Positions 2,319 through 29,081 are shown, counted from the first letter of the stretch. The stretch is DNA of 32,000 bases from Haloferax volcanii DS2 (GCF_000025685.1 NC_013967.1:2250001-2282000), one strand, 5' to 3'. Made by a program: numbers and translations. The notes: generated by a model from the sequence alone, not told the origin.

Positions 2319-4595
2319 ATGGCGTCTCCTGACAAGAACTCCCAAACTGACCGCCTCGATGGCGAAGAATCGTTCCGAGCAGACGGTGCCGGCACCGCCG
2401 AACTGGTCCCCACGACCGGGCCGGAGGCGATGGCCGCCCGCGCGAGTGAACTACCGGTCCCCGCGTCGGACCGCATCGAATACGGCCCCGTCGAAGACCT
2501 CGTCGACGACGAAGCGGCGGACGAAGACCGCCCGGAAACGCTCCGGGAGGCCGTCCTCCGCGAGGTGAAGGCGTTCTTCGCCGAAATCGACGACGAGACG
2601 GCGTTCGCGCCGACGCCCTCGGAGGCGTTCATCGAAGACCAGTTCTTCGACTTCTCGTTCCTCGAGGGCGTCGAGGCCGTCGAACACTACTGGGTGAACA
2701 AGCCCTTCGCGTTCGTCTCCATCCTGTACGACCACGAGAAGCGCGAACACCGGTACCACGTGAGCGAACCGCGTCTCGACGACTTCGAGGACTTCGTGCG
2801 CGACGACCTGACGAAGATTCTGCGCAACAGCCTCCTGTACCGCGACCTCGACGCCGACGGCGACCGCGAGGACGTGTTCGACGACGAGGCCCGCGAGATA
2901 ATCACCGAACACGCGGCGACGGTCGAAGACGGGTCGCTCTGGAAGCTGTTTTACTTCCTGCTTCGGGACTTCATCCACTTCGGCCGCATCGACCCCGTGA
3001 TGCGCGACCCCGGCATCGAAGACATCTCCTGTGACGGCGACGACGTGCCCGTCTACGTCTTCCACAGCGTCTACCGGGACGTGCCGACGAACGTCGTCTT
3101 CGACGACGGCGACCTCTCGTCGTTCACCATCCGCCTCGCGCAACGCGCGGGCAAGCAAGTGACCGTCTCCGACCCGCTCGTGGACGCGAGCCTCCCGGAC
3201 GGCTCCCGCGTCCAGTTGACTCTCGGCTCCGACGTGGCCACCCGCGGGTCGAACTTCACCATCCGGAAGTTCTCGGACGTGCCGCTGTCGCCGGTCGACC
3301 TCGTGCGCTGGAACACCTTCAGCGTCGAGCAGATGGCGTACTTCTGGCTCGCCATCGAGAACAACCGCTCGCTCATCTTCGCCGGCGGCACGGGCTCCGG
3401 GAAGACCACCTCGATGAACGCGGTGTCCTTTTTCGTCCCCGGCCACGCGAAGGTCGTCTCCATCGAGGACACCCGCGAAATCACCCTCCCGCACGACAAC
3501 TGGATTCAGTCTGTCACCCGCGACACGTTCACGGCGGACGGCCGCGGCGAGGTGTCGATGTACGCGCTCTTGCAGGCCGCGCTCCGACAGCGCCCCGAGT
3601 ACCTGCTGGTCGGTGAGATTCGCACGGAAGAGCGCGTCGCCCTGACGTTCTTCCACTCCATCGCCACGGGCCACACCGCGTACACGACGTTCCACGCCGA
3701 CTCCTCGGAGGGCGTGGTCCACCGCATGCGCAACGAACCCCTCGGCGTGCCCGCCCAGATGCTGTCGGACCTCGACATCATCTCGGTCCAAAAGCAGATT
3801 CACCTCGACGGCGACCGGACCCGCCGGAACATCGCCGTCACCGAAATCGCCGGCGTCCACGACGACGGCGAGGTCGAACTCCGCGACGTGTTCAAGCGCA
3901 ACCCCGAGAACGACGCTCACGAGCGCGTCGGTGACTCGGTCGTCCTCGACGAAATCGCCGCCGAGCGCGGCTGGACGAAAGCCGACCTCAAATACGAACT
4001 CGACGTTCGCGCCGACGTGCTCCGGTACATCGCCGCCTCGGCGCTCGACGACTACCTGACCGTCTCGGCCGTGATTCGCCGCTTCGAGCGCGACCGCGAA
4101 GGCCTCCTCGCGCGCGTCTACGCCGAGACCTCGCTAGTCTCCGTCGACGAAAACGGCGAGGCCGACGAGAGCGACGACCCCGTGGCGGGCGAAAACGACG
4201 CCGCGGCCGACGACTTCGACGACGAAATCGAGGTCTCGCCTGAGACCGAACGTCTGCTCGCGGACCTGTTCGACATCGAGTTAGACGACGACGCGGACGG
4301 CGACTCGGATGACGATGCCGACGACGATGAGGTGGCTGACGCCGCCGAGGCGGAGGCCGCCCCCGCCGCCGACGAAAGCGAAGCCGCCACCCCCGACGCC
4401 GCCGACGAATCCGATGACCCCGACGATGTCGGGACCGACTGGGAAGTCGTCGGTGACGACGCCGACGCCGGCGCAGACGACGCGGAAGCCGATTCCGCTG
4501 TCGCCGCGGACGCCTCGGACGCGTCGCCCGACGACCCCGACGACGCTGACGAGACCGTGACCGACGACGACCGGGAGGCCGACGATGCCCGCTGA
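2319..4595 (+). CDS. pilB: Type IV pilus / archaellum-family assembly ATPase (PilB/FlaI/VirB11 superfamily) with a long acidic C-terminal tail
   Basis: 758 aa. Walker A is FAGGTGSGKTTSMNA, the Asp box is VSIEDTREI, and the Walker B region is PEYLLVGEIRTEE, followed by the His box TGHTAYTTFHA. The stop overlaps the next gene's start by 11 nt. The last ~150 aa are almost entirely D/E/A. Confidence 0.9.
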   Translation: MASPDKNSQTDRLDGEESFRADGAGTAELVPTTGPEAMAARASELPVPASDRIEYGPVEDLVDDEAADEDRPETLREAVLREVKAFFAEIDDETAFAPTPSEAFIEDQFFDFSFLEGVEAVEHYWVNKPFAFVSILYDHEKREHRYHVSEPRLDDFEDFVRDDLTKILRNSLLYRDLDADGDREDVFDDEAREIITEHAATVEDGSLWKLFYFLLRDFIHFGRIDPVMRDPGIEDISCDGDDVPVYVFHSVYRDVPTNVVFDDGDLSSFTIRLAQRAGKQVTVSDPLVDASLPDGSRVQLTLGSDVATRGSNFTIRKFSDVPLSPVDLVRWNTFSVEQMAYFWLAIENNRSLIFAGGTGSGKTTSMNAVSFFVPGHAKVVSIEDTREITLPHDNWIQSVTRDTFTADGRGEVSMYALLQAALRQRPEYLLVGEIRTEERVALTFFHSIATGHTAYTTFHADSSEGVVHRMRNEPLGVPAQMLSDLDIISVQKQIHLDGDRTRRNIAVTEIAGVHDDGEVELRDVFKRNPENDAHERVGDSVVLDEIAAERGWTKADLKYELDVRADVLRYIAASALDDYLTVSAVIRRFERDREGLLARVYAETSLVSVDENGEADESDDPVAGENDAAADDFDDEIEVSPETERLLADLFDIELDDDADGDSDDDADDDEVADAAEAEAAPAADESEAATPDAADESDDPDDVGTDWEVVGDDADAGADDAEADSAVAADASDASPDDPDDADETVTDDDREADDAR

Positions 4596-6711
4596 CTCGT
4601 CGACTTCGGTCCCCCTGCCCGACTACGAGGTCGAGCAGTACTTCCCGCGCGAACACTTCGACGAGTCGCCCGAGGAGGTCGAACGACTGCGCCAGCGCTA
4701 CGGCTACGTCCGCACGTACTTCAAGCGCCACCCGGCGGGCCACCGCGACCTCCAGCGCTGGCTGAACCAGACCCGCGTGGGCACGACCTACGACCTGTAT
4801 CTCACCCAGTCGATGAAGCTGGCGCTCGTCACCGCGGCGTTCGGCTCGCTCGTCGGCCTCGCGCTCACGTTCGTCCTCGCCCGCACGGGCGTGCTGGCGA
4901 ACGCGTCGAGCCCCGTGAGCCTCGGCGTCGCGACGGGGTACGTCGCCCCGCTTGCCCCCTACAAGGTTCCCATCCTCGGCGCGGCCCTCGTCGCCCTCGT
5001 CGGCGGGTTGGCGGCCGCCGGGACCTACTACGCTCGGTACTACCTCCCCAAGAGCCGCGCCGAGATGCGCGGCCGCAGCATCGACATCCTGCTCCCGCAC
5101 GCCATCGTCTACATGTACGCGCTCAGCCACGGCGGGATGAGCTTCCTCGAAGTCATCCGCTCCGTCGCCGACGCGCCCGACTACGGCGAGGTGTCCCGCG
5201 AGTTCGAGATGATCGCCCGCGACATGGACCTGTTCGGTAACGACCTGTTCACGGCGCTCCGCAACTCGCGGAACCTGACGCCCTCGATTAACTTCGAGCA
5301 GTTCCTCGACGACCTGCTTTCGGTCCTCGACTCTGGCGGCGACGTGACCGCCTTCCTCGACCGCGAGTCCGCGACGTACCTCGAAGAGGCCCGCGACGAA
5401 CAGGAGGACTTCATCGAGACGCTGTCGATGCTCTCGGAGGTGTTCGTCGCCGCGTTCGTCGCCGCGCCGCTCCTGCTCATCGTCACGCTGATGGTCATCA
5501 GCTTCCTCGGCGGCGACACGCTCGTCCAGCTGTACGCGCTGAACTACCTCATCTTCCCGCTGGGGATGGGGCTGTTCCTGCTCCTCGTGGACGTGCTCTC
5601 CTCGCCGTACACGCAGGACACGGTCCGGACGAAACACGACGTGACCGTCCTCGAAGAGCTTCGGACGGTCGCGGTCGACTTCCTCGGCGCGATGCGCCGC
5701 GAAGTCCAGCGCGCCCGCGAGGCCCGCTGGGGCGGTGACGGCGTCGCCTCCGACGGCGGCTTCGTCGACGAGCGACTCGACGACTACCGCCGGGAAAACG
5801 CGGTGTACGAGCTTCGGACGCTCGTCGGCGACCCGCTCGACATCATGCGCCGCCAGCCGTACCTCTCGGCGGTCGCCACGGTTCCCCTCGCGCTCCTGTC
5901 GGTCGTCGGCGTCCTCGTGCTCGGCCTCGCGACGCCGACGCTCGACGCCATGCTCGCGAACCCGTACAACACGACGGTCTGGTTCGTCGTCCTCCCGTTC
6001 GCCATCGTCGCGGTCCCCCTGACGGTGTTCCACGAGCTTCGGACCCGCCGCGAGCGCACGCTCGAACGGCGCTTCCCCGACACGCTGAACCTGCTGTCGA
6101 GCGCCAACCAGATGGGTATCTCGCTGGTCGAGTCGCTCGCGCTCGTCTCCCGCTGGTCGACCGGCGCGCTCGCGGACGAACTCCGCGCGCTCCGCAACGA
6201 CATCCGCTGGAACCACGACGCCCACGCGGCGCTCATGGCGTTCGCCACCCGGCTCAACGTCCCGCAGCTCTCGCGGGTCATCCGGCTCATCGCCAGCGGC
6301 GGCCGCACCAGCGGCGACCTCTCGCGCGTCCTCAGCGTCGCCGCGGAGGACACCCGCAACCGCTACAAACTGGAGAAGTCCCGCCGTCGCGCGATGGGCT
6401 CGTACATCGCCATCGTCGTCATCGGGTACTTCGTCTACCTGTTCGTCATCCTGATGATCGGCGCGAGCTACCTCGGCCCCCTCGCCGAGATGTCCGTGCC
6501 CACGACGGCGTCGAACGGACAGTCGCTCCCCATCGGCATCTCGTCGGTGCCGCTGACGAACTTCCACGTGGTGTTCTTCCACTCCGCGCTGATTCAGGCG
6601 GTCGGCAGCGGGCTCCTCGCCGGCAAACTGGCCGACAACAGCGCCCTCAGCGGGCTGAAGTACGCCCTCGGACTGTCCGCGCTGGCGCTCGTCGCCTTCG
6701 CACTGGTGTAA
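4585..6711 (+). CDS. pilC: Type IV pilus platform membrane protein (PilC/FlaJ/TadC, duplicated T2SS-F-like domains)
   Basis: 708-aa polytopic membrane protein with two cytoplasmic helical modules each followed by TM clusters. The ATG at 4585 overlaps the pilB stop. This ATPase-platform pairing is canonical for archaeal type IV filament loci. Confidence 0.85.
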   Translation: MPADSSTSVPLPDYEVEQYFPREHFDESPEEVERLRQRYGYVRTYFKRHPAGHRDLQRWLNQTRVGTTYDLYLTQSMKLALVTAAFGSLVGLALTFVLARTGVLANASSPVSLGVATGYVAPLAPYKVPILGAALVALVGGLAAAGTYYARYYLPKSRAEMRGRSIDILLPHAIVYMYALSHGGMSFLEVIRSVADAPDYGEVSREFEMIARDMDLFGNDLFTALRNSRNLTPSINFEQFLDDLLSVLDSGGDVTAFLDRESATYLEEARDEQEDFIETLSMLSEVFVAAFVAAPLLLIVTLMVISFLGGDTLVQLYALNYLIFPLGMGLFLLLVDVLSSPYTQDTVRTKHDVTVLEELRTVAVDFLGAMRREVQRAREARWGGDGVASDGGFVDERLDDYRRENAVYELRTLVGDPLDIMRRQPYLSAVATVPLALLSVVGVLVLGLATPTLDAMLANPYNTTVWFVVLPFAIVAVPLTVFHELRTRRERTLERRFPDTLNLLSSANQMGISLVESLALVSRWSTGALADELRALRNDIRWNHDAHAALMAFATRLNVPQLSRVIRLIASGGRTSGDLSRVLSVAAEDTRNRYKLEKSRRRAMGSYIAIVVIGYFVYLFVILMIGASYLGPLAEMSVPTTASNGQSLPIGISSVPLTNFHVVFFHSALIQAVGSGLLAGKLADNSALSGLKYALGLSALALVAFALV

Positions 6712-6715
6712 GGCC

Positions 6716-8887
6716 ATGACTCACAACACTTCCCCCAAACACACGAAATCGCCCCGCAGGCACGCACTGTGCGGGTTCGTCGCGGGCGCGGCCCGCCGCG
6801 GCTCGCACCTCCGCGGTGACCGCCGCGGAGCCTCGGCCATCCTCGGCACGATGCTCGCGTTCGCGCTCGTCGTCTCGCTCGTCGCGATGGTGCAGGTCTC
6901 GGCGGTCCCCGCGTGGAACCAACAGACCGAGTTCGAACACCTCACGGCCGCCGAGACCGACTTCGCCGCGTTCGACGAGAGCGTCTCGAAGGCGGTCGAC
7001 GGCCGGCAGACCCGCGCGACCCTCGACGCCGGCGTCGACTACCCGACCCGCGCGCTGTTCGTCTCGCCCGCCGCCGGCTCCGGCAGTCTGCGGACGACCG
7101 ACCCCGCGACGGCCCGCATCTCCGGCGCGGTCGCGACCGGCGAGACCGGCACCTACTGGGACGGCTCCGAACACGCGTTCGACACCCAGCAGTTCGTCTA
7201 CCGACCCGACTACCGGTACCTCCAGAGCGAACCCTCGCTCGTCCACGAGGGGACCGCGCAGTACACCGCCTACGCAGGTAGCGAGGTCGGCGCGACCCAG
7301 TCGCTCGTCGACGGCACCAAGGTGTCGCTCGTCTTCCTCGAAGGCGACATCGACACCGCGACGAGCGAGGCGACCACCTTCGGCGTCGTCCCCCTGAGCG
7401 CCGGCACCGACTACATCACCGTCACCGACGCGGGCGCGCCCATCACCATCTCGGTCCCCACCCGGCTCTCCGAAGACGCGTGGCGCGACCTGCTGGCCGA
7501 CGAACCCAACGTCCGCTCTATCGCCTACGCGACCGGCACCGATTCCAACACCCTGACGGTCGAACTCGAACCCGGCAAGACCTACGACCTGCGGCTCTCG
7601 CGGGTCGGCATCGACACCCCCGGCGCGCTCCAAGCGCCCGCCTACATCGTCGACGTCGAGGGCGACAACGCCGTCGTCCCGCCGGGTGCGAGCCACCGGG
7701 CCGTCGTCGAGGTCCGCGACGCGCAGAACAACCCCGTCCCCAACGCGGTCGTCACGGCCAGCCCCGGCCTGACCGCCGAAAGCGGGCGCATCGTCGCACG
7801 TGACACCGGCACCGTCTCGACCGTCACCGATTCGGACGGCCGCGCGACGTTCGTCTACACCGCGACCGGAAGCGTCGACGGCGTCGTCAACGACGCGTTC
7901 GACGTGGTCGTCGAGGACGCCGCGGGCGCGACCGTCGACCGCGTGACCTTCGACGTACAGCTCCGCGAGGGCGGCGTCACCGACCCGCTCCGCGGGCTCG
8001 TGGCCGCCGTCGACGACCCCGGATTCGTCTACGCCGATGTCGGCGGAAACGGCGAGTTCGACGGCGCTGACTACCGCGTCAACGACACCGGCACGGGCGG
8101 CGACGTGACATACGACGCCGGAACCGACCGGATCGTCGTCCCGCCGAGCACCGGGACCATCGTCTCCGACCGCGACATCACCTTCGCGGGCGACGGAGTC
8201 TCGCTCCACGTCGACACCGTCGCCACCGGCTCGAACAGCCGAATCGACATCGACGCCGGAAGCGGCTCGCTGGCCGCGGTCGGCGTGAGCGTCACCTCGG
8301 TGTCGGGCCAGGACATCACCGTAGTTGCGGGCGACGAAATCGACCTTTCCGGCGCGTCGGTCACGCAGGGAAGCAAAGCCAGCCTCTCCATCGAGGCCGG
8401 CGGCGACATCGACCTCGACAACGCCGGGGTGACGGTCGCACAGGACAGCAACAGCCTCCGTATCGTCTCGACGAACGGCTTCGTCAGCGCCCGGAGCGCC
8501 GACATCAGCGGGAAGGGCGACATCCGAATCGACGGCACGGACGGCGTCGACCTCGCCGGGGCCGGCCTCTCGGGGGTCAAGGACAACGACGCGCTCGACG
8601 TCGTCTCCGCGCGCGGCGGGGTCAATCTCAACGGCGTGGTCATGCTCGGCGACGGCGACATCGTCGTCGACGCCGAGGGCAACGTCTTCGTCGTCGGCGC
8701 GAACATCGCCTCGACCAAGACGGACGTGGTGATAACCTCCGACGGCGGGATGGTCAGCGGCCGCGAGGCCGCCATCTCAGCCGAGGACGACGTGGTCATC
8801 ACCGCGGCGGTCCGCATCTACCTGCCCGACTCCTCTATCGAAGACGAGGACACGCCAGAACTGAACGCGCCCGAAGTGGAGGTCTGA
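6716..8887 (+). CDS. Giant pilin-like protein 1: class III (prepilin-like) N-terminus, conserved N-module, Ig-like domain, and C-terminal beta-helix-like repeats
   Basis: 723 aa, starting 4 nt after the pilC stop. The N-terminus ..GDRRG|ASAILGTMLAFALVVSLVAMVQV matches the archaeal prepilin pattern (basic residue-Gly, small residue, hydrophobic helix). An Ig-like segment (VVEVRDAQNNPVPNAVVTA...TDSDGRATFVYTA) lies at ~7688-7963. About nine 22-24 aa repeats lie at ~8173-8835. Confidence 0.75.
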   Translation: MTHNTSPKHTKSPRRHALCGFVAGAARRGSHLRGDRRGASAILGTMLAFALVVSLVAMVQVSAVPAWNQQTEFEHLTAAETDFAAFDESVSKAVDGRQTRATLDAGVDYPTRALFVSPAAGSGSLRTTDPATARISGAVATGETGTYWDGSEHAFDTQQFVYRPDYRYLQSEPSLVHEGTAQYTAYAGSEVGATQSLVDGTKVSLVFLEGDIDTATSEATTFGVVPLSAGTDYITVTDAGAPITISVPTRLSEDAWRDLLADEPNVRSIAYATGTDSNTLTVELEPGKTYDLRLSRVGIDTPGALQAPAYIVDVEGDNAVVPPGASHRAVVEVRDAQNNPVPNAVVTASPGLTAESGRIVARDTGTVSTVTDSDGRATFVYTATGSVDGVVNDAFDVVVEDAAGATVDRVTFDVQLREGGVTDPLRGLVAAVDDPGFVYADVGGNGEFDGADYRVNDTGTGGDVTYDAGTDRIVVPPSTGTIVSDRDITFAGDGVSLHVDTVATGSNSRIDIDAGSGSLAAVGVSVTSVSGQDITVVAGDEIDLSGASVTQGSKASLSIEAGGDIDLDNAGVTVAQDSNSLRIVSTNGFVSARSADISGKGDIRIDGTDGVDLAGAGLSGVKDNDALDVVSARGGVNLNGVVMLGDGDIVVDAEGNVFVVGANIASTKTDVVITSDGGMVSGREAAISAEDDVVITAAVRIYLPDSSIEDEDTPELNAPEVEV

Positions 8888-8890
8888 GCC

Positions 8891-10621
8891 ATGTCTCGCC
8901 TCTCTCTCGACTCCCGCGGCGTCTCGGAAATCCTCGGGTTAGTATTCGCGTTCGGGCTGGTCGTGTCGGTCATCGCGGTGGTCCAACTCGCGGGCACCCC
9001 CGTCTGGACCGCCGGCGACGAAGCCGACCACAGCGCCAGCGTCTCGGCCGACCTCGCGTCGCTCGACTCGCAGGTGTTCCGCGCCTCCGGCGTCGAGGCC
9101 GGCAGCCGCGTCGCGGTCGACTCGGACGTGTCGTACCCCGAGCGGTATCTCGTGGTCTCGCCGCCCGACAGCGTCGGGACGTTCCGGGTCGACGGCGCGG
9201 ACGCCGTGACGGTCACGGGCGTCTCCGCGGTCGGTCCCGAAGCGGTGTTCTGGGACGGCACGACCCGCACCTACGAGACCGGAGCCATCGTCTACGAGGC
9301 CGACTACGCCGAGCGCGACGAGGCGCGGATGGTGCTCGAAAGCGGCGTCTCGTACCTCGAAACCGACGGGACCCCCGTCGTCCACCGCCAGTCGCTCGTC
9401 CGCGGCACGACCGTCACGCTCGTGTTCTTCGAGGGCGACCTCGACGGCCACACGACTGCCGGCGACACCGTGGCGCTCGCTCCCGTCTCCGTGCGCTCCG
9501 AGTCGCTGCCGGTGTACAGCGCCACCGGCCCGGTGCGCATCTCGGTGCCGACCTACCTCTCGGAGGACGCGTGGGTCGACCTCATGGCCGAGGAACCCCA
9601 CGCGCGAGTCGTCTCCCACGTCGCCAGCGGCGACCACGCGGTCGTCACTATCGAACTCGACGCGGGCGTCCGCTACGACTTCCGCGTCGCCCGTCTCGGC
9701 GTCGGCGAGGCCGTCGAACCCGACCCCGCCGCCTACGCGGTCGCGGTCGAAGGCGAGGACGCCGCGGTCCCCTCGGGCGGCCGCGAGACGCTCGTCGTCC
9801 GCGCGTTCGACCGCTACGGCGCGCCCGCCGCGGGCGCGACGCTGACCGTCAGCCCGTCGACCCCGCTCGGCGGCACCGTCGCCCCGACCGCCGGGGCGAC
9901 CGCCGTCACCGACGAGTCCGGCCGCGCGAGCTTCACGTACACCGCGCCCGACGACGTGACCGAAATCGAAGGCGACACCGTCACCGTCACCCTCGACGGG
10001 GCGTCCGGCCCCGGCGCGACGGTCACCATCCCGCTGGAAGTCCGCGGGATGGGCGAGAGCTACGAGGTCCGAAACACCACCGCGTCGACGCCGGAGCCCG
10101 AAGACGACTTCGACATCGACGACGGCGAGGTCGTCCCGTCGGACGCCTTCACGGGCGATTTCGAACTGCTCGGCAGCGCCATCACGGACGGGCGGGGTCC
10201 CGTTCCCGTCTCCGTCACCTTCGTCGTCGACGGCGAGCAGCACCACTCCGCGGACTGGGACGACGTGAACGACCGCCGGTCGCACTCGTTCAGCGTGGCT
10301 GGCGACGCCGGTGACTCGCTCGCCATCATCGCCGCCACCGACGGCTACGTCACCGCCGACTCGTCGGTCGACCACCGACAGGTCGCGGTCCTCCGCGACG
10401 GCGACCGGGTCCCGAGGATACGGGGCTACAACGGACAGGACGACGCCGCCGAGTTCGTCGCACCCTACATCAGCGACGGCGGGAAGACGATGGAACTCGA
10501 CAGCAACCAGGCCATCTTCCTGTTCGAACTCGGAACGACCGACACGCACAGTCCCGCGTTCGATATGCAGGACGTGGTCATCCTCGTGACCCTCTGGGAG
10601 GACGGGGAGGGAGGCGACTGA
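8891..10621 (+). CDS. Giant pilin-like protein 2: a paralog of the upstream gene with a different C-terminal domain
   Basis: 576 aa, starting 3 nt after the previous stop. The N-terminus MSRLSLDSRG|VSEILGLVFAFGLVVSVIAVVQL looks like a short class III signal peptide. It shares blocks with protein 1 (SVPTYLSEDAWVDLMAEEP vs SVPTRLSEDAWRDLLADEP; TDESGRASFTYTA vs TDSDGRATFVYTA). The C-terminal ~190 aa are unrelated to protein 1. Confidence 0.75.
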   Translation: MSRLSLDSRGVSEILGLVFAFGLVVSVIAVVQLAGTPVWTAGDEADHSASVSADLASLDSQVFRASGVEAGSRVAVDSDVSYPERYLVVSPPDSVGTFRVDGADAVTVTGVSAVGPEAVFWDGTTRTYETGAIVYEADYAERDEARMVLESGVSYLETDGTPVVHRQSLVRGTTVTLVFFEGDLDGHTTAGDTVALAPVSVRSESLPVYSATGPVRISVPTYLSEDAWVDLMAEEPHARVVSHVASGDHAVVTIELDAGVRYDFRVARLGVGEAVEPDPAAYAVAVEGEDAAVPSGGRETLVVRAFDRYGAPAAGATLTVSPSTPLGGTVAPTAGATAVTDESGRASFTYTAPDDVTEIEGDTVTVTLDGASGPGATVTIPLEVRGMGESYEVRNTTASTPEPEDDFDIDDGEVVPSDAFTGDFELLGSAITDGRGPVPVSVTFVVDGEQHHSADWDDVNDRRSHSFSVAGDAGDSLAIIAATDGYVTADSSVDHRQVAVLRDGDRVPRIRGYNGQDDAAEFVAPYISDGGKTMELDSNQAIFLFELGTTDTHSPAFDMQDVVILVTLWEDGEGGD

Positions 10622-11990: not shown

Positions 11991-12941
11991 TCAGCTCTCC
12001 GTTTCGTTATGGATGGGTGTCTCGGTCGGCGGTGCTGTCTCCGTGTCGTCGTCAGTGGTCGTCGTCTCCGCATCGTCGTCAGTGGTCGTTGGTTCCTCCG
12101 TCGTCGGTTCCTCACCGATAGTCACGACTGCGTCATCGGTGACGGGCGTGCCGTTGACCGTGTACGGGCCGTCTTCAGTTCCGTTGGAGGTGAGGAAGTC
12201 GAGCGTCTGGTTGTCGTTGGTGTCGAGATGCGCCTGCGCCGTGAGGTTCACGCTCTCGTTCTCGCTCAGCGGTTCGAGGAGCGGCACGGTAACGTTCTCC
12301 TGTGGGCCGGAGTCGAGGTAGTCGGTCGCGCCGACGACCGAGCCATTCTCGTCGAGGATGGCGATGTAGCCACCGTCGGAGAGGTTCGCGCTCGTGACGG
12401 TCACGTTACTGCCGTCGGACTCCTGGTCGTCGAACTGGAGCGTCGCGGTCGGCTCGTCGGGTTCGGGCTCGGGCTGTTCGCCCACGGTGAGCGTCGCCAA
12501 CTCGCCGAAGTCGCGCGTCTCGATACCGTGGATGTACGTCCCGTCTTCGAGGTCCGTCGTGTTGACGTCGAACTCGATGGTCTCGGTCTCGTTGGGGTTC
12601 AGCGCCCAGCCGGTCCGTTCGACCACGTCACCTTCGAGTCGGAACTCGACGCACTGAATCATCGGCACGTCGTTCGGATTGGTGATATCGGCCGACACCG
12701 TCACCGGCTCACTGGCTTCGACGCCGGACGGCGCGGAGAGATTGCTCACCCCGAACGACTCATACGTACCGTTGCTCGGATACGTGCAGTACTGTGTCTG
12801 CGTCTGCGTCTGTGTCTGTGTCTGCGTCTGTTCTTGTACCTGTGCCTGCTGTGTATCGACCGCCGCCAGACCGGTCCCCGACGCCGCCGCGACGAGGGCG
12901 ACGACGACGAGGACGCCGGCGATACGTGTTCGTGTGCTCAT
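11991..12941 (-). CDS. Secreted, heavily N-glycosylation-sequon-rich cell-surface protein with a (TQ)n linker and Thr/Asp/Glu-rich C-terminus
   Basis: The start is taken at the ATG at 12941 (MSTRTRIAGVLVVVALVAAASGTGLAAVD), giving a Sec-type signal peptide. This is followed by QTQTQTQTQTQTQ, two beta-rich domains (the second containing NLSDGGYIAILDENGSVVG, a motif seen in halophile surface proteins), at least 12 N-x-S/T sequons, and the tail TTEEPTTTDDDAETTTTDDDTE. No C-terminal membrane anchor is visible. Confidence 0.7.
   Translation of the reverse strand: MSTRTRIAGVLVVVALVAAASGTGLAAVDTQQAQVQEQTQTQTQTQTQTQYCTYPSNGTYESFGVSNLSAPSGVEASEPVTVSADITNPNDVPMIQCVEFRLEGDVVERTGWALNPNETETIEFDVNTTDLEDGTYIHGIETRDFGELATLTVGEQPEPEPDEPTATLQFDDQESDGSNVTVTSANLSDGGYIAILDENGSVVGATDYLDSGPQENVTVPLLEPLSENESVNLTAQAHLDTNDNQTLDFLTSNGTEDGPYTVNGTPVTDDAVVTIGEEPTTEEPTTTDDDAETTTTDDDTETAPPTETPIHNETES
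12792..12830 (-). repeat. Imperfect hexanucleotide coding microsatellite (CTGYGT)n on the + strand, equal to (ACR-CAG)n or (Thr-Gln)n on the coding strand
   Basis: The sequence reads ctgtgtctgcgtctgcgtctgtgtctgtgtctgcgtctg. That is 6.5 units, in frame within the glycoprotein gene. Confidence 0.8.
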
Positions 12942-13440
12942 GTGTCTGCGATGACAATCTACCGACGCCGCCGGCAAAAGCTGACGAGATAGTTTCAATA
13001 GTTTCGCGCGTTGGCTGTCAACTTACCTGACGGTGTAGACGGTTAGTCCGCCTCTGATTCCGATACTGGTGGCCTCTCGACCGATTTTTCCGCAACAGTT
13101 CACGAAACACGATGTTTCACGCGAGACGCTACGCGTTAACTGTCAGAAAATCGAGTTTGTCGCCAATGCTAACGGGGTAGCTTCTCGTTTATTCGAACGT
13201 TCTGACAGTTTGAGTGACGCGGCCGACTGAGCGTTTCGAAACCGGGACGGTGTCGAATCGCTGGCTGTCTCTGAACTACTCGGGAGCTCAAGGGGTGACT
13301 TCTCATACGGGTACCGATTGTCCAGTTACGTTGAGTAGTGAGAACCGTAGATACAGTTGGCGTTACATTCGTGGTCGAATTCGAGACATCACATACATTA
13401 TATCCAAAACTTCTTGTACCAGTACCGTATTGGGCTGTGT

Positions 13441-13899: not shown

Positions 13900-14000
13900 T
13901 CGGTCGCTCACTCCGTTCGCTCCCTGCTTCGAATCCGCCGTCACCACTTTCGGTACCACGGACTCCTCGCTGTCGCTCGTCGTTGCGAGGTACCAGAAAG

Positions 14001-14075
14001 TGGGTTGGGGCGGATTCGAACCGCCGGCCTGCTCCGTGTGAAGGAGCCGTCATAACCTGGCTAGACCACCAACCC
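14001..14075 (-). tRNA. tRNA-Val (anticodon CAC)
   Basis: The reverse complement is GGGTTGGTGGTCTAGCCAGGTTATGACGGCTCCTTCACACGGAGCAGGCCGGCGGTTCGAATCCGCCCCAACCCA. The acceptor stem GGGTTGG/CCAACCC has 7 bp. The anticodon stem GCTCC/GGAGC encloses loop TTCACAC (anticodon CAC). The T-arm is GGCGG-TTCGAAT-CCGCC and the discriminator is A. CCA is not encoded. Confidence 0.93.
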
Positions 14076-23428: not shown

Positions 23429-24229
23429 CTACCGCGTTTGGTCCAGCAGGTGGGCTCGTGCCTCCGAGACGGTCAGCGGAACGTCGTCAACGTCGAGTAT
23501 CCCCTCGAACAACTGCACCGTCGCCGGCGGCCGGAGACCGTTGTCTCTCAGCAGGGTAGTGTCTGTCAGCACGTCTCGAACAGGTCCGTCCGCGGCTATC
23601 GACCCGTCCTGCCCGACGACGAGTACTCGGTCGGCAATCTCGGGCACGGCGTCCACAGACGGCGTGAACAGCACCACGGTCCCCTCGTGGCCGGTCACCA
23701 GTTCCAAAATGCGTTCTCGGTAGCCGGCGTCGACAGCGCCGAACGGCTCGTCGAGAAGGAGCACCGCCGGCTCGAACGCGAGGACGCTCGCGACCGCCGC
23801 CCGCTGTTTCTCGCCCCCCGACAGACGGAACGGGGGGCGGTCCAACAGGCTCTCTAACCCGAGTTCGGCCGCGAGGTGTGCGACTCGCTGTGTCGCTGCC
23901 TGCCGTGACATCCCGAGCTGGGCCGGCCCGTATTCGATGTCCTCGCGGACGGTCGTATTGAACAGGTAGTCGTCGGGGTCTTGCAGGAGCACGCCGAGGC
24001 GGTCCCTGACGGCTTCGGCATCCGCCGTCTCACCGACGTACTCGACCGTTCCGGCCGTCGGCTCGACGAGGCCGCCGAGCACGTGTTGCAGCGTGCTCTT
24101 TCCCGACCCGTTCGCACCGATGACGGCAACTCGCTCTCCCGCCTCGATTGTGACCGTCACGTCTCGGAGCGCCGTCGTTCCGTCCGGGTACTCGTGTGTC
24201 AGTCCCCGGGCTTCGATTACAGGCCCCAT
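23429..24229 (-). CDS. cbiO: ECF/CbiO-type Ni/Co transporter ATP-binding protein
   Basis: It begins MGPVIEARGLTHEYPDG (ATG at 24229). Walker A is GANGSGKST, the signature is LSGGEKQR, and Walker B is LLLDEP. It overlaps the cbiQ stop by 13 nt. Confidence 0.88.
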   Translation of the reverse strand: MGPVIEARGLTHEYPDGTTALRDVTVTIEAGERVAVIGANGSGKSTLQHVLGGLVEPTAGTVEYVGETADAEAVRDRLGVLLQDPDDYLFNTTVREDIEYGPAQLGMSRQAATQRVAHLAAELGLESLLDRPPFRLSGGEKQRAAVASVLAFEPAVLLLDEPFGAVDAGYRERILELVTGHEGTVVLFTPSVDAVPEIADRVLVVGQDGSIAADGPVRDVLTDTTLLRDNGLRPPATVQLFEGILDVDDVPLTVSEARAHLLDQTR

Positions 24230-25029
24230 CGAATCACCCCCGAGCCGGTGACGGCCACGACGGCGAGCGCGACCAGCGCGTAGTCGCCCCCGTCGACGTC
24301 CCGCGACCGACTGTACGGTGACGGTGGTCGGGAACCGCCGCGGGCCCGCATCCCGCGGCCGACCCGTTCGCCGCGGTCGAGCGTCCGCAACAGGAACGTC
24401 CCGACGAGCCGCTTTGCATCGCGCCACCCGTCGCGGAGGCTCGACTGTCCGGTCGTGCGACTGTTCCGCGCGAGAACGAGTCGCTGTAACTCGTCGAAAA
24501 ACAGGAACAGGTAGCGATAGGTGACGGCGACGACCCACACGAGCGCGACCGGGACGCGCAGTTCCCGCATGGCCGCGACCACCGACGAGAACGGCGTCGT
24601 CATCACGATGAGCGACAGGAGCGCGACGCCGACGCCGACGCGGAGCGTGAACAGCACGACGTACGCGACGCCGGCGTCAGTGACGGCGAACCCGAACGCC
24701 CGCACGAGCGCGTCCCCGGGGAGCAGTACGGCTTGGGGAACGACGATACCGGCGGAGACGAGCGGCACGACCGCCGAGCGTGCGAGCAACTGTCGGAGCG
24801 GAACCGCCGACAGCCGCGCCAAGAGGACGGTCACGACGCCGAAACAGAGGGAGACCGCGACGGTTCGCGTAATCATCACCGCCAGCGCGAGGCCAGCGAC
24901 CGAACACAGGGAGACGCGAGGGTCCCGTCGCTGGAGGAACCCGTCGGACGAGGCCACCTGCTCGGCCGTGAACACGGATCGAAGCGCCCCCGTGATGGAT
25001 TCGACCGAGCGGCCGACGACGCCGGTCAC
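24217..25029 (-). CDS. cbiQ: ECF transporter transmembrane (T) component CbiQ
   Basis: 270-aa polytopic protein. It has the CbiQ-like C-terminal region AMRELRVP...YRYLFLFFDELQRLVLARNSR...R (two Ala-Arg-Gly/coupling-helix-like motifs: ARNSR and MRARGG). Confidence 0.85.
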   Translation of the reverse strand: MTGVVGRSVESITGALRSVFTAEQVASSDGFLQRRDPRVSLCSVAGLALAVMITRTVAVSLCFGVVTVLLARLSAVPLRQLLARSAVVPLVSAGIVVPQAVLLPGDALVRAFGFAVTDAGVAYVVLFTLRVGVGVALLSLIVMTTPFSSVVAAMRELRVPVALVWVVAVTYRYLFLFFDELQRLVLARNSRTTGQSSLRDGWRDAKRLVGTFLLRTLDRGERVGRGMRARGGSRPPSPYSRSRDVDGGDYALVALAVVAVTGSGVIRWGL

Positions 25030-25325
25030 TGTTCGAGGAGGCGACCGACTCCGACTCCGACCGCCAGCGTGAGCCCCGTCCCGACGACCGCCGAGACGAG
25101 CGTTCCGAGCGGCGAACTGAGCCCCGGGACGGAGTAGTCCGGCAGCAGTCCGGGACTGACGGGGTCGGCCGCGTCGGCCGCCCCGGTCTCTTCGGCGGCG
25201 TTTTCGAGCGGTTCGGCGTACCCGACTGCGCCGGACGCCCAGCCGAACACGGGAGCCAAGACGACGAGCACGAGCAGCCCGATGAGCGCCCGCCGACCCC
25301 AGGAGTCAGACACGAGCGCGTTCAC
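25026..25325 (-). CDS. cbiN: Small two-TM accessory component (CbiN-like / PDGLE-type loop) of the Ni/Co transporter
   Basis: The GTG at 25325 overlaps the cbiM stop (GTGA). The sequence VNALVSDSWGRRALIGLLVLVVLAPVFGW..GYAEPLENAAEETG...LLPDYSVPG...LVSAVVGTGLTLAVGVGVG shows two TM helices flanking an acidic loop, positioned between cbiM and cbiQ. Confidence 0.6.
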   Translation of the reverse strand: MNALVSDSWGRRALIGLLVLVVLAPVFGWASGAVGYAEPLENAAEETGAADAADPVSPGLLPDYSVPGLSSPLGTLVSAVVGTGLTLAVGVGVGRLLEQ

Positions 25326-25978
25326 AGGCCCACCTCCGGGGAAAGCGAGTCGTCGTCGAGTCGCCCGAGCACGAGGTCCGGTCGAGCGTCCGCGACGTAG
25401 CCGTAGACCGCGGCCGTAATCGCGCCCTCGACGAACCCCAAGAGCGCGTGGCCGACGACCATTATCAGCACGGTCACGCTCAGCTCGTAAGCGAACGCCG
25501 ACGAGAGGCCGATGCCGACGCCGACGATCAGCGCCGAGACGGTAATCGCTCCCCACCCGGCGACGAACGCAGCGCCGGTTTCGTGAACCCCTCGGAGCGC
25601 CCGGAAGAGGGCGTACCCGACGAGGACGTCGACGACGGCCATCGCAAAGAGGTTCGCACCGAGCGCGATGATGCCGCCGTCGCCGAACACGAGCGCCTGT
25701 ATCGTCACGACGGCACTCATCGCGAGGACGCCGAGATACGGTCCGAGGAGGATACCCGCGAACGCCCCGCCGACGAAATGAGCGCTCGTCCCGCCCGGAA
25801 TCGGCCAGTTCAGCATCTGCGCGGCGAAGATACCTGCCGCAACGACGCCGAGAAGCGGCGTCCGTTCGTCACCGAGTTCGCCGCGGGCGCGTCTGACCGC
25901 GATACCGATTACGATGCCGGAGCCGAGCCAGAAGAGACCCGCCACCCAGGGGTCGAGGAAGCCGTCCGGAATGTGCAT
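25322..25978 (-). CDS. cbiM: Ni/Co ECF transporter substrate-capture component CbiM/NikM
   Basis: It starts MHIPDGFLD. The N-terminal Met-His-Ile-Pro-Asp-Gly is the metal-ligating signature of CbiM/NikM. It is a 218-aa polytopic protein. The track ORF's 90-aa upstream extension is rejected. Confidence 0.9.
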   Translation of the reverse strand: MHIPDGFLDPWVAGLFWLGSGIVIGIAVRRARGELGDERTPLLGVVAAGIFAAQMLNWPIPGGTSAHFVGGAFAGILLGPYLGVLAMSAVVTIQALVFGDGGIIALGANLFAMAVVDVLVGYALFRALRGVHETGAAFVAGWGAITVSALIVGVGIGLSSAFAYELSVTVLIMVVGHALLGFVEGAITAAVYGYVADARPDLVLGRLDDDSLSPEVGL

Positions 25979-25979
25979 T

Positions 25980-25999
25980 CGTATCACACGTGTGATTCG
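25980..25999. promoter_or_regulatory. 20-bp palindrome (14-bp perfect core ATCACACGTGTGAT), a candidate NikR operator at the cbiM transcription/translation start
   Basis: cgtATCACACGTGTGATtcg has a perfect core at 25983-25996 and one mismatched pair in the outer arms. It starts 2 nt upstream of the cbiM ATG. It lies between that ATG and an AT-rich TATA-like block (minus strand AAAGTATTATTG, ~26004-26018). Confidence 0.45.
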
Positions 26000-26105
26000 G
26001 TCAAGCAATAATACTTTTCTTCCAAATCGTAATACTGGCCGATATGGTGTCGATTCGAAAGCGTTACTGCCAACGACTAAACGGCTGCTGGGAAAAGTCA
26101 AGATT

Positions 26106-26522
26106 ATGAGCCAGGACGTCGACCGGATGAGCGTCACGCTCCCGCCGAGTCTGCTCTCCGAACTCGACGACGTGGTCGCCGCCGGCGAGTACGACAGCCG
26201 CTCGGAAGCGACCAGAGACGCGCTTCGCGCGTTCGTCACGGAGTTCAATCAGCAGACGGGGCTCTCCGGAAGTCTCAGCGGAACCGTAGTCGTCCTCTAC
26301 GAGCACGACCACAGCGGCGTGAGCGACGAGATGACCGAACTGCAACACGACTTCACCGAGACCATCATCGCGGTCCATCACGTCCATCTCGGCGACCACC
26401 TCTGTCTGGAATCCATCGCCGTCGACGGGACGGGCGAGCGAATCGAGGAGTTGCTCTCGCGAATTCGGCCGCTGAAGGGCGTCCATCAGGTCAGACTCGC
26501 CGTCGTCGAAGCGGACCGGTAG
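26106..26522 (+). CDS. nikR: Nickel-responsive transcriptional regulator NikR (ribbon-helix-helix plus ACT-like metal-binding domain)
   Basis: It begins MSQDVDRMSVTLPPSLLSELDDVV..YDSRSEATRDALRAF (RHH/CopG N-domain). The C-domain carries His/Cys ligand motifs (VLYEHDH, IAVHHVHLGDHLCLE). The alternative start at 26127 (MSVTLPP) would place AAGATTAT ~25 nt upstream, making the transcript leaderless. Confidence 0.88.
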   Translation: MSQDVDRMSVTLPPSLLSELDDVVAAGEYDSRSEATRDALRAFVTEFNQQTGLSGSLSGTVVVLYEHDHSGVSDEMTELQHDFTETIIAVHHVHLGDHLCLESIAVDGTGERIEELLSRIRPLKGVHQVRLAVVEADR

Positions 26523-26648: not shown

Positions 26649-29081
26649 TTAATCGTCCGCGACGGCGGTCGCCGCCGGCGTGTCCGGCGCCTCCGGTTCG
26701 GGGTTCGATTCGACCCGTTCGGACGCCGGCGTCCACGTCAGTTCCTCGTCGTAGTGGAACGCGCGGTGGTCCTGCGTCGGGTCGACGACCGTCAGCGAGA
26801 GCCAGTCGTTGTCGAGCAGTTCGGTCAGTTCCGCGTGGTCGGCCAGCACGTCGGTGACGCGGTCGACCGGCGCGTGGATAATCGTCGAGAGGCGGAGCGG
26901 CTGGTGGTACGGCGTGTCGTCGTCGGCCATCAGCGACTGGAGCGGGAGGCCGGTCATCAGGTCGCCGCCGTTGCCCTGATAGACGCCGACGTTGCCGACG
27001 GGGTTTTGGGTCACTTTCGACCCGCTGCCGTAGACGGCGTTGTCGACCGTCGAGAAGTAGTACTGCGCGTTAATCCACTGGGTGACGACCATCGGCCCCG
27101 TGAGAATCGCTTCGAGCGCGTCGCCGTCGGGGTCCGTCGCGTGGTCGTAGGAGTGGAGGAACGCGCGGCCGTCGAGGTCGAGGTCGCTCGTCAGTTCGCG
27201 GGGGCCGATGACGAAGCCGGCGTTGCCGGCCAGCCCCCATTCGGGACGCGTCTCGGCCCAGTCGGCGGCGCGGCGCTCCGTCTCGCTGACGGCCGCGGAG
27301 CCGCCGGCTCCCATCGTCTCGGCGCGCTCGGCGGCCGCGTGCTCGCGGGCGACCGCGAGGTCCGCGCGCAACTGGTCGAGGTCCTCGGCGTGGCTCTCGG
27401 GTACGTCGCCGTCGTACAGTTCGATTTCGTCGGTCGTCGTGTTGTGCTCGCCGGCGACGAACACCGTATCCTCGGGGATGCCGAACCCGCGGTCGCGGAG
27501 TTGGGCTTTGACCGTCTCGTCGTTACAGATGGCCGCGAGGACGCGGGCGTTCGGGCCGCCGGGGTGACCGGCGCAGGCCCCGCAGTCCAGACTCGAATCG
27601 TAGGGGTTGTTGGCCGTCTCGCTGGCGTGACCGGTGAACACGACGAGGCGACCGAACTCCTCCCAACCCATCAGCCCGAAGGCGTTCGCGGCGTACTCGA
27701 CTTTCTCGTCGTCGGTCAGCCCCACCGGGAGGTCGCCCGCGTACGAGTGCTGGTGGTGGATGACTTGGTCGCAGAACTCGCGGTCGTCGGGGACCGCGTC
27801 GTCAGCGGTTCCGAGCAGGTCGGAGACGCGACCGGGGACGAGCGTGCGGGCCGCGAGAGCCAGCCCGTATCCGCTCCCCGCGCTCTCGACGAAGCCGAAG
27901 GCGGTGGCGGGGTTGGTCTTCAGCGACTCGATGGCCTCGCCCGCGGCCTCGCGGAGGCGCGACCAACGGTCGCGGGTCGCCTCGGTGTCCCTGTCGGTCG
28001 GGACCTCGGTGACGCGGTGCTGCGGGTCGACAATCGGCGGGCAGGCGTCGACCGCTACCTCGGCGTCGTACCCCCGGTACTCCATCGGGATGCCGAAGAA
28101 GCCGGCGTAACCGTGGGTCTCGTAGTCGCCGGTCGCCTCGATGTGCCGGCGGATGACCTCCGAGCGCGTGTCGATACAGAACACCAGTTGCGCGTCCGGG
28201 CGGCCCGTGGCGTCGCTGGTGTCGAGCGCCTCGCTCTCGGCGGCGACGCGGTCGACAACCTCGTCGCGGTAGCTCGCCTCCCACGCGCTCAGGAACGCAT
28301 CGGCGAGTTCGTCGGCCGCCTCGGCCTCGTCGCTCTTCGACCCGGTCGACGGCGCGATGTCGACGCCGAACGCGTCGAGGAGCGCGAGGCGGGCCGCGAG
28401 GTAGCCGTCGAGCGAAATCGGGTGCGCGGACTGCCACTCGCCGCCGTCGGCGGCGCGTTGCTTGATGAAGCCGGTCCAGCCGGGGAGCGCGGCGAGCTGC
28501 TCCTCGAATATCGGCACCCATTGGCTTTCGGGATACGACGCGACCGCGGCCTCGATGGTCTCGACCGGCGACTCGGGCAGGTCGGAGACGATGCCGTCGT
28601 CGGGGATTTGGCCGTCGTACGCGGCCATCGACCGGAAGGCGTTGTAGAACCCGTCTTCGCGGTCCGGCATCGGCCAGTGGGCTTGACCCTCGTCGAGGAA
28701 CGCCGACAGCCACTTCGTCAGCACGCGGTCGACCCGCGCGGCGTCGGTCTCGACGTCGTCGCCCGCGCCCGCGGACTCGACGCCGGCGTCCATGCGCTCC
28801 AGTAGGGCTTCGGGGTCGCCGTCGTAGCCGCGGTCGGCCAGTTCCGCGTCGAGCGCCGCGGGGTCGATTTGCCCCCCTTCGAGGGCCGCTTCGAACGTCT
28901 CGGGACTCGGGTAGCCGCGGCCGCCGACGAGGTCCGCGGCCTGCGTGACCGCCTCGCTGAACGGCATATCTTCGAACCCCGAAAGCGGGTTGGCCGTGAC
29001 GAACGAGTGAACCGGCCAGACCGAGCCGACGGTCGTCGCGGCTTTGTCGATGCTGTCTTCGATGCTGTGTTCAGTACTCAT
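26649..29081 (-). CDS. dabA: DUF2309/UPF0753 family protein, DabA-like subunit of a putative DAB inorganic-carbon (CO2 to bicarbonate) pump
   Basis: 810 aa, the typical family length. It has beta-carbonic-anhydrase-like Zn-ligand motifs VFCIDTRSE (C-x-D-x-R, ~28169-28182) and FTGHASETANNPYDSSLDCGACAGH (~27564-27640). Its start overlaps the stop of the NuoL-like gene by 11 nt. Confidence 0.85.
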   Translation of the reverse strand: MSTEHSIEDSIDKAATTVGSVWPVHSFVTANPLSGFEDMPFSEAVTQAADLVGGRGYPSPETFEAALEGGQIDPAALDAELADRGYDGDPEALLERMDAGVESAGAGDDVETDAARVDRVLTKWLSAFLDEGQAHWPMPDREDGFYNAFRSMAAYDGQIPDDGIVSDLPESPVETIEAAVASYPESQWVPIFEEQLAALPGWTGFIKQRAADGGEWQSAHPISLDGYLAARLALLDAFGVDIAPSTGSKSDEAEAADELADAFLSAWEASYRDEVVDRVAAESEALDTSDATGRPDAQLVFCIDTRSEVIRRHIEATGDYETHGYAGFFGIPMEYRGYDAEVAVDACPPIVDPQHRVTEVPTDRDTEATRDRWSRLREAAGEAIESLKTNPATAFGFVESAGSGYGLALAARTLVPGRVSDLLGTADDAVPDDREFCDQVIHHQHSYAGDLPVGLTDDEKVEYAANAFGLMGWEEFGRLVVFTGHASETANNPYDSSLDCGACAGHPGGPNARVLAAICNDETVKAQLRDRGFGIPEDTVFVAGEHNTTTDEIELYDGDVPESHAEDLDQLRADLAVAREHAAAERAETMGAGGSAAVSETERRAADWAETRPEWGLAGNAGFVIGPRELTSDLDLDGRAFLHSYDHATDPDGDALEAILTGPMVVTQWINAQYYFSTVDNAVYGSGSKVTQNPVGNVGVYQGNGGDLMTGLPLQSLMADDDTPYHQPLRLSTIIHAPVDRVTDVLADHAELTELLDNDWLSLTVVDPTQDHRAFHYDEELTWTPASERVESNPEPEAPDTPAATAVADD

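Follow-up and report, generated by a model that had tools for sequence, protein, structure and literature searches.

Two large pilin-like proteins in a type IV pilus-type operon of Haloferax volcanii: candidate tip pilins of the DUF7289 family

The haloarchaeon Haloferax volcanii DS2 carries, in a stretch of 32,000 nucleotides (nt) of its chromosome (NC_013967.1:2250001-2282000; hereafter the window), a type IV pilus-type operon of four genes. The first two encode an assembly ATPase (PilB) and a membrane platform (PilC), and the other two encode large proteins that begin like pilins, named here proteins A and B. The locus thus raises a simple question: what would a pilus machine do with two such proteins as its nearest companions? 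The answer favoured here, as plausible though somewhat short of probable, is that this is a type IV pilus operon of clade 2 (‘system 2’) in which A and B may be large minor or tip pilins, processed by the prepilin peptidase PibD and presenting variable adhesin domains on a shaft whose short pilins come from other loci. Tip display had also been suggested in an earlier interpretation of the same DNA made from its letters alone (the sequence-only reading), and it is the best of the explanations compared below.

Gene order and protein architecture

The four genes are packed as tightly as had been described before. Listing and translation of the open reading frames (ORFs) give an overlap of 11 nt between pilB and pilC, a spacer of 4 nt between pilC and the gene for A, and one of 3 nt between the genes for A and B. 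All four products are exact matches to chromosomal proteins of H. volcanii DS2 (Table 1). In this region the coding pattern of GC content at third codon positions (0.89-0.95) is limited to the four plus-strand ORFs, and antisense ORFs of 909 and 564 amino acids (aa) were rejected by the codon-position GC analysis as high-GC artefacts. ADE03592.1 is annotated as ‘type IV pilus biogenesis complex ATPase subunit’ and ADE03832.1 as the corresponding ‘membrane subunit’. Protein A is annotated as ‘hypothetical / Big-1 domain-containing’, and protein B is named ‘secreted glycoprotein’ in UniProt. The genes are probably HVO_2385-2388, counting from radB, which is HVO_2383. A full-text literature search for HVO_2385-2389 and DUF7289 found no paper.

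The machinery is that of an archaeal type IV pilus, as the sequence-only reading had proposed. PilB matches T2SSE in Pfam (1.7e-31), has the Walker A motif GGTGSGKTT, and carries the extensions PilB3_N (34.4 bits) and PilB3_C (35.6 bits), each of which exceeds the cut-off of 27. Its best NCBIfam match is FlaI (5e-111), and as the score stays under the equivalog cut-off, PilB is a paralog rather than the archaellum motor. PilC is a single ORF with two T2SSF stretches (1.9e-35), not split over two genes. These tested features, namely the T2SSE ATPase, its PilB3_N/PilB3_C extensions and the single two-repeat platform, are those of an archaeal clade 2, or ‘system 2’, type IV filament assembly locus. 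The acidic, low-complexity tail of PilB, about 150 aa long and made nearly all of D, E and A, differs in length among close Haloferax orthologs, whose total lengths are 704-786 aa.

Both large proteins are indeed pilin-like, each having a class III signal motif, a long predicted N-terminal helix and beta-rich domains. The motifs read DRRG/ASAILGTMLAFALVVSLVAMV in protein A and MSRLSLDSRG/VSEILGLVFAFGLVVSVIAVV in protein B, where the slash marks the predicted cleavage site. Our own pattern scans, built on the FlaFind core pattern, looked for [KRDE][GA]/[ALIFQMVED][ILMVTAS] followed by an uncharged hydrophobic stretch; protein A has RG/AS and then 20 hydrophobic residues, and protein B has RG/VS and then a hydrophobic helix. 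The N-region of protein A, of 38 aa and strongly basic, keeps an SP(L/R)RH motif across the Haloferax orthologs. Similarly long N-regions occur in a few other genera (homologs P0020, P0022, P0023 and P0027), and those of protein B and most of the family have at most 10 residues. Some database entries for orthologs have 678 aa and would begin at M46, which lies inside the hydrophobic helix. This start was rejected in view of the long N-region that the Haloferax orthologs keep, and these entries are probably mis-started.

In the AlphaFold2 (AF2) predictions, an N-terminal helix is followed by a beta-rich globular part in both A and B, which is a pilin-like layout. The helices are 56-59 residues long, and the single helix of protein A begins at the predicted +1 residue. 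Protein A is modelled with a mean predicted local distance difference test (pLDDT) score of 86.4. Its residues 1-33 are disordered (pLDDT below 50), beta-sandwich domains extend to residue 417, and past a flexible linker a regular, beta-helix-like domain of short strands is predicted at residues 439-722. In protein B, confident beta domains reach residue 388, and the last 188 residues are unmodelled (pLDDT below 50). The beta domains after the helices have pLDDT values of 80-96 in both proteins. Neither A nor B has a C-terminal membrane anchor, and no substrate-binding-protein or enzyme domain was found in them by Pfam.

The relation between the two proteins is also as previously outlined: a common module of about 400 aa, an immunoglobulin (Ig)-like domain and diverged C-termini. 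BLASTP aligns A and B at 37% identity over 408 aa (E 6e-69), which makes them paralogs well past any chance similarity, and their C-termini do not align. Common blocks include SVPTRLSEDAWRDLLADEP in A and SVPTYLSEDAWVDLMAEEP in B within the N-terminal module, and the ends of the Ig-like domains (Table 1). The C-terminal domains of A and B have no match in Pfam or PDB sequence searches; one ortholog of protein A (P0011) has a precomputed match to Fil_haemagg_2, a filamentous-haemagglutinin repeat.

Table 1. Features of the operon and of the remaining window, in window coordinates
Feature	Position	Strand	Basis
pilB, PilB/FlaI-family secretion ATPase, 758 aa	2319..4595	+	exact match ADE03592.1
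PilB acidic low-complexity tail, aa about 610-758	about 4150-4592	+	
pilC, PilC/TadC/FlaJ-type polytopic platform protein, 708 aa	4585..6711	+	exact match ADE03832.1
Protein A, large pilin-like, 723 aa	6716..8887	+	exact match ADE04810.1
A, aa 1-38: long basic signal N-region ending DRRG at predicted PibD site	6716..6829	+	AF2 disorder, Haloferax conservation
A, aa 37-297: Pfam DUF7289 match	6824..7606	+	28.4 bits when first 318 aa scanned alone
A, aa 39-94: predicted continuous alpha-helix, hydrophobic H-domain and extension, from predicted +1	6830..6997	+	AF2
A, aa 325-417: Ig-like (Big_1/MG-like) beta-sandwich ending TDSDGRATFVYTA	7688..7966	+	Big_1 sub-threshold, 20-24 bits; AF2 strands, pLDDT mostly 80-95
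A, aa 432-723: predicted C-terminal beta-helix-like domain, many short regular beta-strands, A-specific	8009..8884	+	AF2 pLDDT about 90
Protein B, large pilin-like, 576 aa	8891..10621	+	exact match ADE02530.1 / D4GWN6
B, aa 9-67: predicted N-terminal alpha-helix, predicted cleavage after G10 (SRG/VSEILG)	8915..9091	+	AF2
B, aa 300-379: Ig-like Big_1-type domain ending TDESGRASFTYTA	9788..10027	+	23.7-28.3 bits vs cut-off 34.9; AF2
B, aa 389-576: C-terminal domain, no fold assigned	10055..10618	+	AF2 pLDDT below 50; no Pfam/PDB match
Secreted 335-aa protein with DUF7282	11991-12998	-	1.5e-32
tRNA-Val (CAC)	14000-14075	-	
ECF-type cobalt/nickel uptake cluster	23429-26522	-	
DabA/DabB-type transporter pair, putative	26649-30555	-	

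The DUF7289 family and its neighbourhoods

The N-terminal module leads to the Pfam family DUF7289 (PF23960), whose cut-off is 27 bits; when residues 1-318 of protein A are scanned by themselves, they cover profile positions 1-233 of 238. Pilin_N (PF07790) matches neither A nor B. Among 24 diverse homologs, DUF7289 was matched by 17 (best 1.7e-10), Pilin_N by five (best 5.7e-6) and DUF7266 by four. A word-index search with alignment gave few added members, and the family size is therefore taken from an exhaustive profile search with the N-terminal module. It found 2820 cluster representatives (at 50% identity) at E <= 1e-3, of which 1692 are at E <= 1e-30, and the DUF7289-type module was N-terminal in every case.

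The family is uniform at this end. The motif [DE]R[GA]/xxxx[IVL]G is present in 138 of 145 newly listed representatives, at a median position of 6, and the conserved helix has invariant Q, P, E and H positions right after the hydrophobic stretch. The same 145 proteins have a median length of 713 aa (range 329-1897), with 135 of them at 500 aa or more. The size of A and B, which the sequence-only reading had considered exceptional, is hence the norm of the family and not a peculiarity of the operon. Elsewhere in the family, the C-termini carry Invasin_D3, filamin, FG-GAP and haemagglutinin repeats.

Gene neighbourhoods were scanned with one genome per species, for the best 80 loci of 205 relatives. 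The order pilB-pilC-A-B was present in 16 of 16 Haloferax species. Outside Haloferax, pilB-pilC lay directly upstream on the same strand in 16 of the 55 loci with enough upstream sequence; these were from Natrinema, Halosimplex, Natronoglomus, Halorientalis, Haloarchaeobius, Natronomonas, Halorubellus, Salinigranum and Halapricum, with PilB identities of 52-71%. The remaining 39 of the 55 had no pilB/pilC within 10 kb. Starting instead from PilB, the loci of Haloarcula, Halarchaeum and Salinibaculum all (3/3) had pilB-pilC followed by a gene for a protein of 547, 568 or 602 aa, and these third genes score 300-312 bits against the family profile. The two search directions together give at least 19 non-Haloferax loci with pilB-pilC-family member, and no short class III ORF was detected near the linked loci. 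Hence pilB-pilC-DUF7289 is a conserved unit, whose third gene has been duplicated in Haloferax.

The linkage is, however, one-sided. The sequence-only reading had named homologs routinely found without adjacent pilB/pilC as a finding that would speak against it, which the 39 dispersed loci partly bear out; yet the converse linkage holds, for every locus found with this PilB type carries a family member directly after pilC. The DUF7289 family extends far beyond its pilBC linkage, as is common among haloarchaeal pilins.

Conservation falls along the operon. In one Haloferax locus (L015), identity to the present one is 88% for PilB, 83% for PilC, 63% for the N-terminal module of A, 39% for the C-terminus of A and 48% for the N-terminal module of B. 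In five Haloferax species (L015-L017, L019 and L020), the C-terminus of B is undetectable, being either absent or replaced. Such a drop is expected for exposed, fast-evolving or swapped binding domains that are carried on a conserved docking module.

Other settings of family members were also observed. Stand-alone members in Halorussus sp. AFM4 (L085 10001-13429) and Halorubrum sp. LN27 (L086 10001-14948) lie just upstream of hmgB (HMG-CoA synthase). In the Halorubrum locus, a 526-aa class III protein with Pilin_N and CarboxypepD_reg, weakly related to the family, is encoded between the family member and hmgB. Proximity to hmgB may be a second conserved context of the family. In the metagenome-assembled genome ‘Candidatus Chewarchaeum aethiopicum’ (L048 2584-8972), a family member lies upstream of divergent pilB/pilC (43% and 32% identity), the reverse of the usual order.

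Weighing the proposed role

Five pil operons (pilB1C1 to pilB5C5) are described for H. volcanii, where PilB3, PilB4 and PilB5 belong to clade 2 (PMC6491452, PMC6098224). The census supplements of Makarova 2016 list three H. volcanii clade 2 ATPases under the GenInfo identifiers (GI) 292655193, 292655315 and 292656512; the first groups with H. salinarum pil-1 and is of the PilB3 type, the second is in the PilB4-type clade, and the third is on a separate branch with Natrinema J7 397774918 (PMC4858521). Judging by the order of the GI numbers along the chromosome, the third is very probably the PilB of this locus and would then bear the label ‘PilB5’, and the locus is probably the pilB5-C5 of the literature. 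In the literature searched, ‘pilB5’ occurs in lists only. The sequence-only reading was right that such loci had been catalogued bioinformatically and remain uncharacterised. As a kind, the locus is already known, because it is an annotated pilus operon and most probably a locus of the 2016 census, and because accessory proteins of this kind have been described in print.

Where would the shaft come from? A six-frame scan found no other class III-like ORF in the 32 kb, and among the remaining genes of the window, annotated with Pfam, there is no A24 peptidase of the PibD type. The absence reported earlier is therefore real, and yet the conclusions drawn from it, that A and B are the only cargo and that the filament is a dedicated one, do not follow. 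H. volcanii has 42 predicted pilins (PMC6491452), and PibD is encoded outside any pil operon. The pilB3-C3 operon, too, has no pilin gene and draws its pilins from other loci, and PilB paralogs complement one another (PMC4858521, PMC6491452). Natrinema J7 has two PilB-PilC pairs, of which PilB2-C2 adjoins pilA6-10 (PMC12426801) and has the PilB4-type layout. Overexpression of the other pair, PilB1-C1, restored PilA-dependent infection by SNJ1 in a pilB2-C2 deletion (PMC12426801), which implies that PilB1-C1 can assemble PilA pili. By elimination, PilB1-C1 is the probable ortholog of the machine described here. A shaft encoded in trans is suggested by this restored infection, by the PilB3-C3 pilins and by the dispersal of most DUF7289 homologs away from pilBC.

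According to the tip-pilin reading, A and B would insert in the membrane through their N-terminal hydrophobic helices, and PibD would cleave them after DRRG and SRG, respectively. The PilC platform, powered by PilB, would then pull the processed proteins out of the membrane. They would join the filament first, or only sparsely, and would thus cap or decorate a shaft of short PilA-type pilins. The DUF7289 module, with its helix and first beta domains, would be the docking part and the Ig-like domain a spacer, and the fast-evolving C-terminal domains (a beta-helix in A, a domain with no assigned fold in B) would bind ligands or surfaces. The fall of conservation towards the C-termini and the repeats found at the C-termini of other family members point to adhesin-like behaviour.

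Several points weigh against this reading. Cleavage, incorporation into a filament, position at the tip and adhesion are steps that we infer from the observed gene order, domain content, class III motif, predicted fold, family size and synteny; the step to GI 292656512 and the orthology with Natrinema PilB1-C1 are of the same nature. At full length, A and B score 21.9 and 24.2 bits against DUF7289, under its cut-off. The N-region of A is long for a class III signal. Foldseek against the PDB gave only generic Ig/MG arrays (template modelling score below 0.2) and no pilin head domain. A PDB search with the family profile did place three solved haloarchaeal pilins, which are Pilin_N proteins, at the top (8FJ5, H. 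volcanii PilA2; 8GI2, Natrinema PilA2; 9MYG, Natrinema PilA1), followed by the bacterial pseudopilin GspG, and these matches, at E 0.09-0.55, are each insignificant alone and cover the signal and N-terminal helix only (for example, the profile segment ‘sddrgvsvviGavllfgllvvllav’). The ArcPP supplements contain no proteomic entry that we found for the operon proteins, and the ArcPP text, where PilB3 is reported for every dataset and PilB1 and PilB4 for GMM medium only, does not name the locus ATPase; the operon may hence be silent under laboratory conditions. Lastly, A and B may polymerise by themselves.

This last point leads to a different picture, in which A and/or B are the major subunits of a dedicated filament, a thick ‘bottle-brush’ fibre with beta domains of 500-650 aa radiating from every subunit. 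A and B are, after all, the only class III proteins encoded in cis, here as well as in the conserved three-gene unit elsewhere, their genes are tightly coupled to pilC in translation, and the helix is long and conserved, with invariant residues just past its hydrophobic stretch. We consider this unlikely. The solved haloarchaeal pilins have 145-165 aa and compact heads (PMC12426801), most homologs have no pilBC in their neighbourhood, and C-termini that are swapped between close species are hard to square with conserved helical packing. The likely Natrinema ortholog, moreover, restores an infection that depends on PilA, which implies assembly of short PilA pilins. The large pilin-like proteins of bacteria (CofB, TcpB, GspK and ComZ) are likewise minor subunits. 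It could also be that no long fibre is made at all, and that processed A and B are lifted into a short stub or an envelope assembly at the S-layer, or are released, as in a bindosome or pseudopilus. BasE is the second-best NCBIfam match of the ATPase and BasF the fourth-best of the platform, visible pili of H. volcanii have been reported for pilBC3 only, and the UniProt name of protein B speaks of secretion. A 2026 preprint, further, proposes archaeal type IV filament machines that are ‘functionalised’ by non-pilin proteins that carry a class III signal peptide. Yet the BasE and BasF scores (191 bits where the cut-off is 1000, and 52 where it is 1300) are far too low for membership in the bindosome, and lower than those of FlaI and ArlJ; A and B have none of its substrate-binding-protein domains nor an enzyme domain; and the conserved N-terminal module of 300 aa is explained no better than by tip display. 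This possibility is rated as unlikely as the bottle-brush fibre.

The simplest alternative is that A and B are plain surface proteins anchored in the membrane, with the helix as an uncleaved signal anchor or a Sec signal, and that the adjacency to pilBC reflects co-regulation only. The many homologs that have no neighbouring pilBC, together with the atypical N-region of protein A, would agree with this. Still, dispersal is also the rule for genuine haloarchaeal pilins (PMC4858521). The class III motif of the family keeps a constant spacing to the hydrophobic helix, which is also the case in PibD substrates, pilins are the best PDB profile matches, and the coupling to pilC by 3-4 nt is kept across genera and is seen from both search directions. 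Of the explanations compared, this is the least likely.

If the tip-pilin reading is extended to the whole family, the roughly 2800 clusters of DUF7289 proteins could form an unrecognised haloarchaeal system of interchangeable ‘cartridge’ tip adhesins, each with a docking module and swappable binding domains, and the PilB5-type machine could be specialised for priming with its cis member. Taken in all its parts, this is improbable. The same holds for a more radical version, in which proteins of 550-720 aa polymerise by themselves into a giant-subunit type IV filament that has no structural precedent. Apart from such extensions, the present analysis adds the link to DUF7289 and shows how large and uniform this family is, that the three-gene unit is conserved from both search directions, and that conservation drops towards the C-termini; it also adds the probable orthology with Natrinema PilB1-C1. 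Only one of the five pil operons of H. volcanii has an assigned filament, and the locus is a clean and genetically tractable case, a minimal unit of three or four genes that is conserved across genera and occurs in the principal model organism of the haloarchaea.

Elsewhere in the window are the genes of RadB, a CBS protein, a HAD hydrolase, ZnuABC and the glycine cleavage system, followed in this list by NikR with an energy-coupling factor (ECF) cobalt transporter, DabAB and an Lrp regulator. A mobile element or plasmid origin of the operon was rejected, as megablast against plasmids gave no match and the flanking radB, CBS, HAD, znuABC and glycine cleavage genes are of the housekeeping kind, with synteny in other Haloferax. 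A defence system was also rejected, PADLOC models matching none of the four proteins. Scans for bacterial sigma-70 promoters and terminators carry no meaning for an archaeon. The secreted DUF7282 protein, with a signal-like hydrophobic stretch at its N-terminus, has a gene that converges with the operon and with the gene of the HAD hydrolase, and no link between it and the pilus genes was seen. The only stretch of low GC in the window (13-14 kb, GC 0.56) holds the tRNA gene. The ECF cluster consists of CbiM, PDGLE, CbiQ and an ABC ATPase, with a divergent NikR-like regulator, and the putative inorganic-carbon transporter pair beside it is an unusual annotation in a haloarchaeon.

Comparison with known systems

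In the census of Makarova, Koonin and Albers (2016), arCOG02911 was proposed to be a minor pilin, a view in line with the tip-pilin reading: it is FlaFind-positive, all-beta, 250-550 aa long, prone to duplication and common to clade 2 systems. Proteins A and B resemble it in their FlaFind-type signal, all-beta Ig-like body, variable length, tandem duplication and position beside ATPase/TadC genes of probable clade 2 type. The listed members of arCOG02911, however, have about 245-475 aa, as against 576 and 723 aa for B and A, and the link is made through its description and Pfam DUF7289 only.

The PilB3-PilC3/PilA1-6 adhesion pili of H. volcanii and pil-1 of H. salinarum have a clade 2 ATPase, as the present locus probably does, and share with it the PilB3_N and PilB3_C domains, a single two-repeat PilC and an operon without a short pilin. 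They differ in that pilB3-C3 consists of two genes only, whereas here two large class III proteins are added and the ATPase is very probably the one on a separate branch of the census tree with Natrinema J7. In the PilB4-type loci (H. volcanii HVO_1160; Halalkalicoccus 300711547; Haloarcula hispanica 344212111), class III proteins, arCOG02911 among them, are likewise encoded in cis with TadC and a clade 2 ATPase. In these, five or six small pilin genes (arCOG06117, 04652, 07777 and 03926) directly follow tadC and the ATPase is longer, whereas the present locus has no small pilin.

The Natrinema loci have pilB (59-60% identity), pilC and a family member in this order. The study of Natrinema J7 dealt with the PilA pilins, and the large downstream gene is not mentioned in it (PMC12426801). 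It was also observed that pilB1-pilC1 was weakly expressed and could not be deleted despite repeated attempts (PMC12426801). If this pair is the ortholog of the operon, the machinery may do more than dispensable adhesion.

In bacteria, CofB and TcpB of the type IVb pili, GspK of the type II secretion system, ComZ and PilY1 combine a pilin-like N-terminal helix or a tip complex with extra beta-rich domains, and they are found at the filament tip, where they prime assembly or bind ligands. To A and B these proteins are functional analogies, with no homology of sequence or fold found beyond the N-terminal helix; the domain of life, the peptidase and the folds of the head all differ. If A and B are indeed tip adhesins, they would be to archaea what tip proteins of the CofB/TcpB/PilY1 type are to bacteria, and they would explain how different binding specificities can be carried on one and the same PilA shaft.

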